This document shows, one piece after another, positions 7,403 through 24,589 of a DNA stretch of 64,000 nt. Position 1 is the first letter of the stretch. The number at the start of each line of letters is the position of its first letter. Source of the stretch: Rhodoblastus sp. Lineage in GTDB: Bacteria > Pseudomonadota > Alphaproteobacteria > Rhizobiales > Beijerinckiaceae. The stretch is from contig JBAOHX010000001.1 of the NCBI GenBank assembly GCA_037044955.1, positions 107,140 to 171,139 of the forward strand. The letters are read 5' to 3'. Made by a program: the position numbers and the translations under genes. The notes beneath the pieces were generated by a model. That model did no database searches and was not told the origin of the DNA. It saw nothing but the letters and a program-made list of their open reading frames with translations.

Positions 7403-8590
7403 TCAACCCGCGGCATGGCGCGGCGCAAGGGCGCCGCCGACCAGCGCGCGCAGGCGACGTTGCAGCAGAACGCGGCGGCGATGGAGCGCCCAGCCCATGC
7501 CGCGTCCGACCGTCGAATTGCGCCGATAGTTCGCCGCGTGCGACGCGCGGCCGTCGCACGCGATCTTTTCCGGGTCGCGGTAGAAGCCGGCGATCTTGTA
7601 GGCGCCCATGCCGGGCGTCGCCAGCCATTGCGGAATATAGGCGTTGCACAGGCGTTCGGCGTCGGTGAAGGCGCGGCTCAGTCCGTCGCCGACGGCGGGA
7701 CAGCTCGTGCGAAACGCATCGCCGACGAGGACGACCCCCGGTCGGTCGACGCCGTCGACCTCGTAGAGATCGACAGGCCGCGCAAGCGCCTTGCTCGTCA
7801 CCTCGAAATCGCCGAGCGCGGACTGGAGGCCGGGCAGGGCGGCGAGAACCGCCTGTTTCGGATCGCTCCGCAGCGCGGCGAAGATCGGGTCCTGCATGTC
7901 GCGATAGAGGAAGAGATTGGCGCGCATCCCGGTCGGAAACGGGAATATGCTGAGATAGTCGATGCCGTCGCGCGGCGCATCGCCGTAAATGGTCAGCGTC
8001 TCGAAGTCGAAGCCCGCGCGCCCGACCGCGCGCAGGTCGAAGGCGACGCTGACCGAATGATCCTTGTGCAGCACGCGCCTGACGTAGCCGAGCTTCGCGC
8101 GCAGCGCTTCGCCGCCGCCGGTGGCGAGAACGACGAGCCGCGCTTCGATGGTTTCGCCGGTCGAGAGTTCGACCCGTTGCCGCTCGTCGCTCGCCTCGAT
8201 ATTGGCGACCCGCGCGACGATGCGCGCGACCGACGGCGGTATGGCCTGCCGCATCGCGTTGACGAGGTCCTCGTAGGGCAGGTTGTATTCGCAGGCGCTC
8301 TGGCGGTCGATGACGCGCCCGCGCCGCATGTTGACGACGCTGCTGGAACGCACGCCCGCCCTCGCGAGGGCGTCGAGCAGGCCGAGGCGGCGCATCAGGC
8401 CGATCTGGTCGCCCGCCACCTTGTCGGCCTTGAAATCGGGCGGGCAGACGTCGTGCAGGTCGATGACGGCCGCGCGTACGCCGCGCGCGCCGAGCGCGCA
8501 GGCGGCGGCCGACCCTGCCGCCCCGCCGCCGACGATGACCACATCGAACGAACGCGATGCCTGCGCAGCCGAGGATACGGACGCACTCAT
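7403..8590 (-). CDS. FAD-dependent oxidoreductase / monooxygenase family protein
   Basis: ORF 7403..8659 with ATG at 8590 (MSASVSS...). Dinucleotide-binding fold FDVVIVGGGAAGSAAACALGARG and a later VVLVGDAF motif typical of flavoprotein monooxygenases. Confidence 0.8.
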   Translation of the reverse strand: MSASVSSAAQASRSFDVVIVGGGAAGSAAACALGARGVRAAVIDLHDVCPPDFKADKVAGDQIGLMRRLGLLDALARAGVRSSSVVNMRRGRVIDRQSACEYNLPYEDLVNAMRQAIPPSVARIVARVANIEASDERQRVELSTGETIEARLVVLATGGGEALRAKLGYVRRVLHKDHSVSVAFDLRAVGRAGFDFETLTIYGDAPRDGIDYLSIFPFPTGMRANLFLYRDMQDPIFAALRSDPKQAVLAALPGLQSALGDFEVTSKALARPVDLYEVDGVDRPGVVLVGDAFRTSCPAVGDGLSRAFTDAERLCNAYIPQWLATPGMGAYKIAGFYRDPEKIACDGRASHAANYRRNSTVGRGMGWALHRRRVLLQRRLRALVGGALAPRHAAG

Positions 8591-19384: not shown

Positions 19385-19564
19385 GAGGCGCGCGCATTGA
19401 TGGACAGCGTCGATGTCGCGACGCCGATCGGCTTGCGTGACCGTGCGCTTGTCGCGCCGATGGTTTATTCGTTCGCGCGCATCGGCGCAGCGCTTGCGAT
19501 GAAGGTCGAGGACGTCTTTGTCGCGCAACGTCGCCGCTGGACGCGCTTGCGCGAAAACGGCGGC
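19385..19564 (+). pseudogene. Tyrosine recombinase/integrase fragment (~60 aa only)
   Basis: In ORF 19334..20233. GLRDRALVAPMVYSFARIGAALAMKVEDVFVAQRRRWTRLRENGG matches the conserved core-entry region of phage-type integrases. There is no catalytic R-H-R-Y region, and the flanks are nonsense. Confidence 0.6.
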
Positions 19565-19667
19565 AATCAGTCGACACTGCCGCCCGAGCCGAAAGCGGAC
19601 GCTTCGCTTGCAGCCGGCGCATCATGCGGACCGCCTCAAGCCGAATTGCACTCGTCGCTGAGTTATC

Positions 19668-20999: not shown

Positions 21000-21145
21000 T
21001 CATGCGACGGCGAACTGGCTTGCGCCGATTGGCGCATATGTTCTCGGTATGTCTTGCATGCTTTCGCTGATCGGAGCGCCAGTGTTGCGCAACGAAGAGC
21101 CAGTCTAGCCAATTGATGTTTAACGGATTTTCTGGCGTTTGAAGC

Positions 21146-21194
21146 TGGTGCTGCGAGAGAGGATTGAACTCTCGACCTCTCCCTTACCAAGGGA
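21146..21194 (-). repeat. 49-bp direct repeat: duplicated 3' half of tRNA-Thr (att-like site)
   Basis: tggtgctgcgagagaggattgaactctcgacctctcccttaccaaggga is identical to 24515..24563, which covers the tRNA-Thr anticodon stem through CCA. Confidence 0.9.
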
Positions 21195-21412
21195 TGCATT
21201 AAATGCCAAAAAATGCTGTCAAATCAATTATTTATAAGACATCACAGGCGCGAAACACCCAAAAAACACCCAGTGCCTGTCAGGAGATCTAACGAAAATT
21301 GCAAGGAGTGTCTGGGCCGCCACTGGAAGTCCTGACGCGTCGCCGACTTCACGTCAGGCTGAATAACAAGGATTGTTCGCACGAATAGCGCTTCCGACTT
21401 GGAACACGCGTG

Positions 21413-22373
21413 TCATGGACGAGCGTTTGGTCGCTTGGGCGGTGCGTATTCGAGCACCGCGTCAACCAGTCGGTTTCCGTATTTAGTCCGCATCCGCGTA
21501 ACGAACGTTGCTTCTGCCGCGACACAAAAACCGAGGTAGCCTTTTAGCTTCGCCATATGCTCTGGGTCCGTTTCCCCGAGCGCAACTTTGTGCAGCATCG
21601 CTGAGATCAGTCGCTTGCGTTCCCGTCCAATCGAGACTTTCTCATCGGGTGTAACTATTAGGCCGGTTACCATCCGGCGTTGGCCCTTGCCGTACATGCC
21701 ACGTTTCTCATCATTGAATGTGAGGCGCGGTGACTTGTGCCTAGCAATTAGAGACCGTGCTGACCGCTCGAAGCGCAACAGCGCGTCAGCGGACTCGCCA
21801 GAGACGGTGATGTCGTCAGCGTAGCGCGAATAACTAACGCCCAATTTTGAAGCGGTTTCAGAAAACCTTTGATCAAGCTCGAACATCACGATGTTTGACA
21901 GCTTTGGCGACGACGGAGCACCAATCGACAGGCACTTTGGATCGCTGGAATTCACGCCCCAAAACAAGATTTCGACTGCAAACTCGCAGGTCGGCGGGAC
22001 TTAGTTCTAGCGCGGCTTTTTTCGCAACTCTCTCCCAATCGGCAACCATTATGCTTGGGAAGAAATCCTTGAAGTCCAACTTGAGAATGACAGCGCTATC
22101 GACGTGCCTGCGAGCATTGTGCGCGATGCTACGCCCTTCGACGTAACCCATCGCGTCTGAATGCACCGGCAGTTTCTTGAGAAGCGTGTCATGCAAGTAG
22201 CGTTGGAGAATTTTTAGATCGCGGGCCGGCTGCGCAATTATCCGCGTGCCTCCGGTGCGCTTGGGAATCTCGTAGACCTTATAGCGTCGTGGCGCAGTCG
22301 CGACGATGCGCACGAGGTCCGACATCGCAATCGCTAGGTCTGCGCTGAGCTTCTGAAGCAGGCCTTCCGTCAT
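21413..22373 (-). CDS. Retron-type reverse transcriptase, frameshifted in this sequence near 21957-21990
   Basis: The N-terminal part is ORF 21873..22373 (YKVYEIPKRTGGTRIIAQPARDLKILQRYL, GRSIAHNARRH, KLDFKDFFPSI). The C-terminal part is ORF 21413..21967 (LSIGAPSSPKLSN, YSRYADDITVSG = YADD catalytic box, RRMVTGLIV = retron VTG motif). The two parts lie in different frames and join around cgaaatcttgttttgggg. Confidence 0.85.
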
Positions 22374-23337
22374 GTCGCAATCCTCGCCTTTGCGACGATG
22401 GTTCGGACGTGACGCGGTAGCGCTGCCCCCTTGTGTACCGATTGCGCAATATTAAGCTTTCGCCGGGAACTGTCGGTTATGGCAACTCCGTCATTGTATG
22501 CATAGATAAATGGATCATGATCGTAGGCGGCGAATAAATAATCTTTAGATGAATATTGGCATATATTCACCCACCCTACGAGGCGCAAGCAGTATATCGC
22601 GTTTCTTATCTCCCGTTCGGTCAATTCTGGTCTTAAGGCAAGGACTATCTCGTACAATTGTTGACGCGTTATCGCGTAATATACATATATAACCCATAAT
22701 ATCACAAAGAATTTTGACTCAGATTTAAGTTTAGAATATAACTCACTCTTCGGGATCGCTGCTAGTTGCTGCTTGATGAATTTGATCATTTCGCGCTTAT
22801 GCGGACTTGCTGACCTAACAATGAGCGTCCCCTTCTTGCTCGTCTTCCAAGGATAAATTCCGACGAAGTCGCTGTTATCTTTCTTTATTCTTTCGACCGG
22901 GCCATATCTGATGAAGATTCTTCATTTGCGTGTTGTTCCTTGAGTATAATTCGCAGCTTGCTGCGCATAATGTGATTGCTGGCAAACGCACCCAATTCCG
23001 CAAGGCTTCCTGGGCTTTCAGCTATAACAAGAATAATAGATGCGATTTGAGCGATATCTTCCTCAAATGTAATTAGGTCCGAGTACGCAGTCTCTCGATA
23101 AAGTTGATTTGCAGCTTCAGCCAATATGACTTGCCCGTCGAGAGGGGTCTTTGGCTTAAAATTGCGGAGTATGTAGTCGCGCAAACTTGGCGGCGGATTT
23201 GGTGCCTTAATCAGGCCGCCGCAGAGAAAAATAGGCTTCGAGGGGCGACTGATGCGAAGCTTATCTTTGTTGAGGTCGCTAAAAAGACCGAGTATCTCGT
23301 CAGTCAATTGCTCTTTACCTTTGAAAGGCAGGAACAA
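22370..23337 (-). CDS. Candidate retron effector: NDT/TIR-like (flavodoxin-fold) N-domain fused to a winged-helix C-domain, frameshifted near 22885-22925
   Basis: ORF 22885..23337 carries KPIFLCGG...IILVIAESPGSLAELGAFA (nucleoside-deoxyribosyltransferase/TIR-like pattern). ORF 22370..22789 stays open upstream to 22921 (RIFIRYGPVERIKKDNSDFVGIYPWKTSKKGTLIV...) and contains the wHTH-like ITRQQLYEIVLALRPELTEREIRNAIYCLRLVGWV. Its stop overlaps the RT start. The start is uncertain: TTG 23337 lies inside the msd hairpin, and the alternative TTG 23307 lies just after repeat a1. Confidence 0.6.
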
Positions 23338-23496
23338 GGGTTGAGAGTTATCGGTACCGCAGGGCGAGGAGCGAAGCGACGAGAGATAACTCTCAAGCCT
23401 TGTTCCTGCCGTTAAGCGCCGACAATAACGTACCGTCTGGCGAATCGCCCGACAAAGCCGAGTTTAAGATGATTCGGCTCGCACGCGTAAAGAGCA
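23309..23496 (-). ncRNA. Candidate retron msr-msd non-coding RNA
   Basis: A 10-nt inverted repeat (transcript 5' UGCUCUUUAC, from 23496..23487, pairs with 3' GUAAAGAGCA, from 23318..23309) acts as a2/a1. A G follows a2 directly (23486), the candidate branching G. Small msr hairpins are present (AGCCGA-N12-UCGGCU; GUCGGGCGAUUCGCCAGAC). A long msd-like hairpin with 26-nt arms and one mismatch spans 23327..23410. TTGACG (-35-like, 23530..23525) lies upstream. Its position upstream of effector and RT matches Sen2/St85-type order. Confidence 0.5.
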
Positions 23497-23565
23497 GTGC
23501 TTTGTCGCCGATTCGGCGCGCCAACGTCAACAGAGCCATACGATGATGGCGAGGCGCGACGCGGT

Positions 23566-23787
23566 TTAAAGACCAGCTTCTCGGAGAAGAGCCGACGCGG
23601 AGGTCTCAAGGGCCTCGGCAATTTTGTTGATGTTGACTAGGCTTACGTTGCGCTCCCCTCTTTCGACGCCGCCGATGTAGGTCCGATCAAGGTTGCTCGC
23701 GGCTGCAAGCCCCTCTTGAGAGAAGTTCAAGGCCTTCCGGCGGGCTCGAACAGCAGCCCCAAAAGATGTGAGCGCCTCACTTTTCAT
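23566..23787 (-). CDS. XRE-family helix-turn-helix transcriptional regulator
   Basis: ORF 23566..23817 with ATG 23787. The HTH_3 pattern is FGAAVRARRKALNFSQEGLAAASNLDRTYIGGVERGERNVSLVNINKIAEAL. Confidence 0.8.
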   Translation of the reverse strand: MKSEALTSFGAAVRARRKALNFSQEGLAAASNLDRTYIGGVERGERNVSLVNINKIAEALETSASALLREAGL

Positions 23788-23850
23788 ATTGCTGCACACG
23801 CGTGGAGTGAGCAGCAATTCGTTCGGCTGATGACAATAAGTCTACGGACT

Positions 23851-23917
23851 ATAAGTATCAAAATTGTGTGGAGAATGTAGCATATGGGTGGCTGCTGCGG
23901 CTGGATTTGATACTTAT
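23851..23917. promoter_or_regulatory. Perfect 12-bp inverted repeat ATAAGTATCAAA / TTTGATACTTAT in a divergent promoter region
   Basis: Read directly at 23851..23862 and 23906..23917, between the divergently transcribed XRE gene and the excisionase-like gene. Candidate operator pair. Confidence 0.4.
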
Positions 23918-23937
23918 GGTCATCATCGAGGAGGGCT

Positions 23938-24312
23938 ATGCCGATGATGTGTGACGGAGGGGATCAAAGGCTGGTGTTCACGGCAAACGAGGTCGCCGCG
24001 ATGCTTCAAGTTTCTATGGCAACGCTACGGCGGCTGACGGCTCACGCGCCGCACTACCGAATGGCAGGACGAAAGCGGGTCTTCACAAGAGATGACTTAG
24101 CCCGATTTTTGGAAGCGTTGCCCACTCCCCAAAACCATGAATGTAGCGGGGAGCCACGTGGGGGCACGTCGATAGTTCGGCGCACTGGAACCCTAAAAGC
24201 TCTGGCCAGAATTGAGCAGAGGAAGCGAGAGCGTCGAATAGCGGCCGACGCACGTCGCGAGATCGCGAAAGCGGAGCGAAGGAAGGACAGAGAAAGTTGC
24301 GGAACGCCTTAA
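23938..24312 (+). CDS. Excisionase-family / HTH_17 DNA-binding protein
   Basis: ORF 23938..24312. GAGGAGGG Shine-Dalgarno sequence upstream. LVFTANEVAAMLQVSMATLRRLTAH...RKRVFTRDDLARFLEAL matches MerR-like excisionase HTH. The tail is basic. Confidence 0.7.
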   Translation: MPMMCDGGDQRLVFTANEVAAMLQVSMATLRRLTAHAPHYRMAGRKRVFTRDDLARFLEALPTPQNHECSGEPRGGTSIVRRTGTLKALARIEQRKRERRIAADARREIAKAERRKDRESCGTP

Positions 24313-24514
24313 TAGAAAATTGTTCTCTTTCCGGGCATCCGAGCCAATTCTGCAATGTCCCCGAGTGTCTGTGAGTGTCCGTGCGTGCGGAAAACATCGT
24401 GAATACAATGTATTAGGAAATAGCGCTCCCTACAAATGGGTGTTTTTCAGTGGCAAGTTGTAGGACAATAATGCCTGTCAACAATTGAGAAATACCAATA
24501 GTTTCAATTATTTA

Positions 24515-24589
<75 letters not shown>

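Follow-up and report, generated by a model that had tools for sequence, protein, structure and literature searches.

A frameshifted type II-A1 (St85/Sen2-family) retron in a small tRNA-Thr islet of a Rhodoblastus sp. metagenome-assembled genome

Components of the locus

The DNA stretch analysed here (the window) comprises 64,000 nucleotides of a Rhodoblastus sp. metagenome-assembled genome (MAG; GenBank assembly GCA_037044955.1, contig JBAOHX010000001.1, positions 107,140 to 171,139), and an earlier note, made from the letters alone, had rightly placed it in a Rhizobiales-type genome. On the minus strand, from 23530 to 21413, the window carries in this order a -35 box, an msr-msd RNA gene, an effector gene and a reverse transcriptase (RT) gene, which together form a retron of the St85/Sen2 family. 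The three co-oriented minus-strand elements with retron architecture that the note had described were all found where it had placed them, and none of them is a chance feature. All retron features given below lie on the minus strand.

The msr-msd non-coding RNA (ncRNA) gene (23309..23496, 188 nt) is apparently intact and of the IA1/IIA1 type, as judged from its fold, from an alignment with 31 other loci and from covariation. Its a2 inverted repeat TGCTCTTTAC (23487..23496) pairs perfectly with the a1 inverted repeat GTAAAGAGCA (23309..23318), and this pairing was recovered by both fold and covariation. Directly after a2 stands G23486, a candidate 2'-5' branching G by analogy with known retrons, the alignment column of which (G10) is invariant in 32/32 sequences. 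The first of two msr hairpins (23455..23480, 7-bp stem) varies in sequence and length between loci; the second (GTCGGGCGATTCGCCAGAC, 23435..23453) is almost invariant in the family, with 100% of its consensus pairs kept in 32 sequences. The msd hairpin (23324..23413), the template for the stem-loop of the multicopy single-stranded DNA (msDNA), was returned by a repeat finder as arms of 29 nt with 93% complementarity (23324-23352 / 23385-23413) and by the minimum free energy (MFE) fold as a long hairpin of 25 pairs (23410-23385 / 23352-23327). The MFE amounted to -88.4 kcal/mol, as compared with -54.9 +/- 4.2 kcal/mol for dinucleotide shuffles (z = -7.9), and 0/200 shuffles folded as well. An msDNA of ~80-100 nt would be expected.

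Conservation of the RNA was assessed on an alignment of 32 sequences, consisting of the window and 31 other alphaproteobacterial loci; these 31 were the loci, from a set of 62 related ones, in which a simple pattern search found the RNA directly upstream of the effector gene. The alignment holds 39 consensus pairs, 23 of which show compensatory double changes. Standard pairs occupy 94.5% of the pair cells, versus 38-44% when the partners were slid by 1-3 columns, and the covariation score was 0.358, versus 0.05-0.09 in the slid controls; 0/500 shuffles matched any of the observed pairing or covariation measures. Most of the covariation resides in the msd helix, where 19 of the 24 consensus pairs are changed on both sides across loci; hardly any variation is seen among the 32 loci in the a2-G motif or in msr hairpin 2. 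Covariation of the a1/a2 and msd stems in homologous loci had been named by the earlier note as a check of its reading, and both stems do covary; the 5' region (23309..23496) that it had paired by hand into an a2/a1 repeat, a G after a2, two msr hairpins and an msd hairpin is thus borne out by the fold (z as above) and by the alignment.

Upstream of the RNA gene, the -35 box TTGACG (23525..23530) of a putative promoter of the retron's own was recognised by its position. In 28 of the 32 loci, the pentamer TTGAC has its first base 33-37 nt upstream of the aligned ncRNA, against a background of 0.8% of equal-sized windows, in surroundings that are otherwise unconserved. It is followed after a 17-nt spacer by a weak -10 element (CGACAA), and because of this weak -10 the promoter was missed by an E. 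coli-style consensus promoter scan, which did not call the -35 box. The positional conservation supports a dedicated promoter as a prediction.

The effector gene (22370..23307) is a pseudogene of the retron St85/Sen2 family, assigned with PADLOC, the NCBIfam model NF038232 and indel mapping; it encodes an RcaT-like protein with a nucleoside deoxyribosyltransferase-like (NDT-like) N-terminal domain and a winged-helix C-terminal domain. Two pieces make it up, an open reading frame (ORF) at 23337..22885 and another frame that is open between 22918 and 22370; after repair it comprises ~312 codons. Its motifs PIFLCGG and ESPGSLAELGAFA occupy positions that are invariant in the alignment of homologues. 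Translation of the effector most likely begins at TTG 23307, two bases after a1, and not at 23337 inside the hairpin, since the intact allele on Logan contig L067 (see below) was called from the equivalent position. The effector gene (23307-22370) overlaps the RT gene (22373-21413).

The RT gene (21413..22373), also a pseudogene, was assigned to the St85 family, in the clade shared with type I-A, on the basis of PADLOC, the NCBIfam model NF038233, solved relatives and indel mapping. It is split into ORFs at 22373..21873 and 21967..21413 and comprises 319 codons after repair. The hallmarks pointed out in the earlier note are all in place, namely SIAHNARRH (NAxxH), DFFPSI, IGAPSSP, RYADD and VTGLIV, and are invariant in an alignment with seven homologous RTs. 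The closest RTs of solved structure are those of Ec78 and Ec83 (1e-57 to 3e-60), followed by Ec86 (6e-36), and by its sequence the RT would fall into clade 1, shared with type I-A.

Family assignment and proposed action of the intact form

Family models were run on the conceptually repaired (frame-restored) effector and RT. The effector scored 189.1 bits with NF038232 (retron St85 family effector; cut-off 100) and the RT 315.7 bits with NF038233 (retron_St85_RT; cut-off 235). In PADLOC the top model was RT_II-A for both RT halves (3.5e-46 and 4.6e-55), with RT_I-A in second place, and NDT_II-A for both effector halves (4.7e-37 and 1.9e-16). The Sen2/St85-type order ncRNA-effector-RT that the earlier note had recognised is thus accompanied by two curated hidden Markov models passed above their cut-offs and by first-ranking PADLOC II-A models. 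All 333 effector homologues collected carry PF28093 (STM3845), and the name 'retron St85 family effector protein' is attached to many of them; a local Pfam scan of the window's effector fragments gave nothing useful, and PF28093 was not reported for the N-terminal fragment. A genome scan with an effector profile yielded 62 loci, mostly from Alphaproteobacteria, and the RT gene follows directly downstream in nearly all of those loci in which the effector gene is intact. The order ncRNA-effector-RT is present in the window as well as in related loci.

The fold of the effector was addressed with an AlphaFold (AF2) model of a 71%-identical homologue (P0001; mean predicted local distance difference test score (pLDDT) 88.9). 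Its top match in the PDB was the full-length Retron-Eco1 effector (1.8e-10); weaker matches comprised winged-helix repressors (MecI/BlaI, HlyU, Fur, MarR) and the NDT-fold N-glycosidase MilB. In sequence comparison the Ec86/Eco1 effector is likewise the only solved relative (1.1e-11 over the NDT domain), and the glutamate aligned to the catalytic E106 of Eco1 is invariant (SLAELGAF). The NDT-like N-terminal and winged-helix C-terminal halves that the earlier note had read from the sequence therefore agree with NF038232, with PADLOC NDT_II-A and with the fold search on the homologue, a structural check that it had itself proposed.

Homology of the RNA extends to the Gammaproteobacteria. The RNA of an E. 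coli St85-family locus (L070, NZ_CP128951.1), which is Eco3 (Ec73)-like and, judging from its genomic context, may be Ec73 itself, lies directly upstream of the effector and shares with the window RNA, in the same order, the a2-G motif CTTTACGCG, the hairpin GTCGGGCG.TTCGCCAGAC, the sequence TTATTG and the a1 motif AGGTAAAG. The stem arms of that hairpin are identical to those of msr hairpin 2 in the window, with one loop base different. Since the same elements recur in the same order, the window RNA is a retron RNA of the IA1/IIA1 type. The two loci differ in the msd stem and msr hairpin 1, the sequences of which are unrelated, and in their carriers: the E. coli locus resides on a P4-like element with psu and ogr/delta genes, unlike the islet in the window.

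The locus thus combines the general features of a retron (an RT with NAxxH, YADD and VTG; an adjacent ncRNA with a1/a2, the G, and msr and msd hairpins) with those of type II-A1 (effector model, St85 RT model, gene order and IA1/IIA1-type ncRNA). As defined by Mestre et al. (PMC7736814), type II-A1 unites RTs of clade 1, ncRNA of type IA1/IIA1 and an effector with NDT-like and DNA-binding parts, and its named members include Sen2/St85, Vch2 and Eco3 (PMC7736814). The locus was assigned to type II-A1 because its RT, ncRNA and effector match this definition.

Retron-Sen2 (St85) of Salmonella Typhimurium (type II-A1, msrmsd-rcaT-rrtT) has the same ncRNA-effector-RT order and overlapping effector and RT genes; both window proteins pass the NCBIfam models named after it, the effector has the same combination of an NDT-like N-terminal and a winged-helix C-terminal domain, and a tripartite toxin-antitoxin (TA) system would be expected by homology. 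The window locus differs from Sen2 in its alphaproteobacterial host, in its longer msd stem (29-nt arms) and in the frameshifts in both of its genes; with regard to the carrier, Sen2 is described as having inserted into the chromosome directly (PMC11701397), and the window retron sits in a tRNA-Thr islet. The closest solved RTs and the second-best PADLOC RT model belong to type I-A (Eco7/Ec78 and Eco4/Ec83, with Septu PtuAB effectors), which shares the IA1/IIA1 ncRNA-RT module with type II-A1 (Mestre et al., PMC7736814). The type I-A effector consists of an ATPase and an HNH nuclease and is not NDT-like; no such genes occur in the window. In Ec86 the effector gene is located downstream of the RT gene, unlike the order in the window. 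Retron-Eco1 (Ec86), of type II-A3, provides the only solved structure with a related effector (PDB 7v9x, 7xjg, 8qbk, 8qbl); its RT belongs to another clade (6e-36 for the Ec86 RT versus 1e-57 to 3e-60 for Ec78/Ec83), and the TM-score of the effector is only ~0.5.

By analogy with these systems, the intact allele is most likely a tripartite toxin-antitoxin system acting by abortive infection. From its dedicated promoter, the msr-msd RNA and both protein genes would be transcribed jointly. The RT would bind the folded RNA, in which the a1/a2 stem adjoins the conserved msr hairpin, would use as primer the 2'-OH of the G that follows a2, and would copy the msd hairpin into multicopy single-stranded DNA of ~80-100 nt. 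The RT-msDNA complex would then keep the NDT-like/winged-helix effector, an RcaT-like toxin, inactive until phage functions that alter or destroy the msDNA free the toxin, leading to abortive infection. The proposed antitoxin logic follows Sen2, for which RcaT has been described as the toxin, the RT as binding RcaT, and the msDNA as enabling the antitoxin activity (bioRxiv 10.1101/2020.06.22.160168); the presumed N-glycosidase/NAD+ chemistry follows Eco1, whose PDB titles (including 8qbl) name filaments with ADP-ribosylated effector and an inactive E106A effector. The priming G and the phage triggers are likewise probable assignments by homology.

Altogether, the locus can be read with high confidence as a type II-A1 retron of the St85/Sen2 family, the intact form of which would be a tripartite TA system and the window copy of which is non-functional. 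The assignment draws on what was observed directly in this analysis, i.e., the families to which both proteins belong, an RNA that is homologous and covarying across loci, and the order of the genes. Several points weigh against it. The effector is only 27-30% identical to gammaproteobacterial St85-family proteins, so chemistry and triggers could differ; msDNA production and a defence role are, for the alphaproteobacterial members, predictions from sequence. The Rfam msr model gave 22.8 bits, compared with a gathering score of 52, and its match falls on msr hairpin 2; at gathering thresholds Rfam returned two tRNAs only, and permissive thresholds added only this sub-threshold match. The Rfam msr model is too narrow for these RNAs. 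Finally, the frameshifted allele was found in this one MAG only, and both of its indels lie in short homopolymers.

The family is an established one, as are its architecture and mode of action, and the locus has been recognised in public annotation. On the same 188.7-kb MAG contig, where the window's MurA is identical to MEI2733444.1, GenBank lists a 'retron St85 family effector protein' (MEI2733441.1, 150 aa), a 'reverse transcriptase domain-containing protein' (MEI2733440.1, 166 aa) and a 'hypothetical protein' (MEI2733439.1, 157 aa). An exact-sequence look-up of the 166-aa RT fragment gave no entry, although a cluster table places this fragment in the NCBI MAG. The novelty that the earlier note ascribed to the locus is not supported. 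The effector that it did not recognise belongs to a named family (NF038232 / PF28093, STM3845); retrons of this kind, which it did not know from this lineage, are annotated in RefSeq/GenBank in Microvirga, Bradyrhizobium, Undibacter, Reyranella, Aureimonas, Devosia and Methylocystis; and its candidate for an uncharacterised defence system is a decayed member of a known retron family, with both genes of the window copy frameshifted. The alphaproteobacterial II-A1 ncRNA alignment, with its strong covariation and positionally conserved -35 box, could seed a better RNA model than Rfam msr.

Frameshifts in the window copy

Both frameshifts were located by comparison with intact relatives. Logan contig L067 (run DRR350540), which was reached through an exact match of the XRE protein adjoining the retron, matches window positions 24543..21141 with 99.8% identity; its genes for the effector (312 aa) and the RT (319 aa) are both intact. 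Relative to this allele and to 15 effector homologues, one T has been lost from the effector gene at 22914-22916 (TTT -> TT), within the NDT domain and before the invariant residues F132, R134, G136 and P137; in the RT gene one A has been gained at 21970-21972 (AA -> AAA), upstream of YADD. Together with L071 (SRR21749616) and L072 (SRR31527407), contig L067 represents three runs in which the islet is 99.6-99.9% identical and the 319-aa RT intact; the 312-aa effector is also intact in L071 and lies outside the coverage of L072.

Apart from the two indels, the window differs from L067 by four substitutions, at 23464 (loop of msr hairpin 1), 23110 (synonymous), 22726 (E->K) and 21171 (distal repeat). 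L071 and L072 carry the intact state at every differing site that they cover, and because they agree with L067 wherever they cover, all six differences are private to the window. At 21171 the window has G, so that the distal repeat equals the tRNA copy, and L067, L071 and L072 have A; this difference could be due to gene conversion between the repeats or to assembly collapse in the MAG.

As predicted from the sequence, the effector is truncated inside the NDT domain and the RT before the catalytic YADD, and neither protein is full-length in the window copy. No msDNA is expected from the window locus, because the RT is not full-length; the RNA gene and promoter remain intact, and the RNA may still be transcribed. 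Possibly the toxin was lost first, in which case later loss of the antitoxin RT would have been harmless. Within one environmental population this retron occurs both intact and with two frameshifts, a natural matched pair that fits the expectation that a TA retron decays safely only if the toxin is also lost.

The window copy has probably been inactivated recently by real mutation rather than mis-assembled. The strongest alternative is that both frameshifts are assembly or consensus errors of the MAG, and that the organism carries an intact, working St85-family retron of the L067 design. Both indels are single-base changes in homopolymers of the kind given above, and the frameshifted fragments occur on one contig, with the intact proteins on three to four contigs from other runs. 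However, three independent assemblies of the neighbouring chromosome, when aligned pairwise with the window (~9.3 kb in sum, all over one ~4-kb stretch), revealed no coding indel, and only two intergenic indels were seen, one of which is shared with another assembly. The window also contains many long uninterrupted ORFs with high GC at third codon positions (GC3), up to 1242 aa; the three private substitutions within the retron point to real divergence; decayed copies of the retron are present in other genomes as well (e.g., L037 and L033); and the adjacent 19.2-21.1 kb consists of truncated gene remnants. Two Joint Genome Institute (JGI) metagenome scans with patterns accepting either allele at each indel gave no match, so the frameshifts are neither confirmed nor refuted in independent data. 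On balance, an assembly error is considered rather unlikely.

A second alternative regards the effector as functional in two pieces, or as restored by programmed frameshifting. It takes its cue from type II-A2, in which a natural frameshift is reported to separate the NDT domain from the DNA-binding domain, the latter being fused to the RT (PMC7736814). The downstream frame in the window is indeed open from 22918 to the RT start. The shift is nevertheless located inside the NDT domain and not at a domain boundary, the gene is continuous in the near-identical alleles of three other samples, the downstream frame shows no fusion to the RT, and the RT is itself broken before YADD, which no functional retron tolerates; programmed frameshifting and a II-A2-like split were therefore both rejected as very improbable. 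Least credible of all is an RT of another class (group II intron, diversity-generating retroelement (DGR), abortive infection (Abi), or unknown-group/defence-associated RT (UG/DRT)) next to a hairpin that is a terminator, a repetitive extragenic palindrome (REP)-like element or an attachment (att) site instead of an msd: it has generic RVT_1 domain matches only on its side and is ruled out by model scores and RNA covariation, as the profile check on the repaired RT that the earlier note had suggested gave 49.8 bits for the group II intron RT model (cut-off 300) and 38 and 29 bits for Drt2 and Drt3a, both far under their cut-offs, with the St85 RT model passing, and as in 32 loci the msd hairpin is found together with the a1/a2 stem and the conserved msr hairpin just upstream of the effector gene, with covariation. 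None of the outcomes that the earlier note had listed as refuting its reading was observed.

Related loci show further cases of loss. In Mesorhizobium sp. CA14 (L037, 6945-7881) the RT is split into two frames, and in five loci (L033, L039, L057, L061 and L062) the effector gene survives only in part. It appears that II-A1 retrons decay repeatedly.

The tRNA-Thr islet and its surroundings

The retron is located on a 3.3-kb islet (21195-24514) with a GC content of 42-55%, compared with 65-72% outside. The islet is bounded by a tRNA-Thr(GGT) gene (24515..24589, minus strand), the 3' 49 nt of which (24515-24563) form the proximal direct repeat, and by a distal 49-nt direct repeat (21146..21194, minus strand), a 100% identical copy of the tRNA-Thr 3' end. 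A very small islet of this kind, lacking an integrase, would represent a compact mobile carrier and is the only mildly unusual feature of the locus. A 12-nt sequence, TCAATTATTTAT, occurs as an exact direct repeat near both islet ends (21224-21235 and 24504-24515), one copy abutting the tRNA 3' end and the other lying 30 nt inside the distal repeat. This sequence could serve a recombinase as an arm-type site, or could recur by chance where the DNA is AT-rich.

Only two genes accompany the retron on the islet. An XRE-family helix-turn-helix (HTH) gene (23566..23787, minus strand), co-oriented with the retron and 70 nt upstream of the ncRNA, encodes a protein resembling restriction-modification controller (C) proteins (Pfam HTH_3, 1e-12; PADLOC Control_protein, 6.6e-21). 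Divergent from it is an excisionase-family HTH_17 gene (23944..24312, plus strand; Pfam HTH_17, 5.2e-9), the product of which scored 25.2 bits with TIGR01764 ('excise'), under the cut-off of 28.8. Between the two genes a repeat finder located a 16-nt inverted repeat (23847-23862 / 23906-23921), and a promoter-like site (23861-23833) is found there as well; by sequence, this arrangement looks like an operator. Homologues of the XRE and HTH_17 genes were not found by tblastn beside the 62 related loci or beside the closest relative (L066). Both were rejected as partners of the retron, as they are not conserved beside related retrons; they belong to the islet.

No integrase ORF was found within 21195-24514, either in the ORF list or by Pfam scan. 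In a related strain (L063), an island at the same tRNA-Thr carries a 533-aa DUF6538/Phage_integrase gene. It is tentatively conceivable that the 3.3-kb unit is a minimal 'defence islet' which lacks an integrase of its own and is mobilised in trans by that of a sibling island at tRNA-Thr, and that the XRE protein gates expression of the retron. A third copy of the tRNA-derived repeat further to the left, which would be a sign of tandem islands, was not found. A tRNA just downstream of the RT was seen in only one of the 33 related loci scanned, namely in Sulfitobacter marinus (L029; tRNA-Leu, 8151-8234), which may be a second tRNA-associated retron islet; with this single case, tRNA-flanked islets are not general for the clade.

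Just beyond the distal repeat, the segment 19161-21145 is a 'graveyard' of truncated genes. It contains a phosphodiesterase-family fragment (profile positions 1-200 of 342), an internal major facilitator superfamily (MFS) fragment (137-259 of 347) and a LysR C-terminal fragment (141-205 of 209); at ~19400-19570 there is a remnant that resembles a tyrosine recombinase by its appearance and has no Pfam match. The segment may be what remains of an older island. At the other side, two contigs from two other runs (L068 and L069, corresponding to window 24543-23497 and 24541-23515, respectively) are 100% identical over the HTH_17 and XRE genes and end at the 5' edge of the retron RNA; these endpoints may reflect branching of the assembly graph where the cargo differs between strains, or low coverage.

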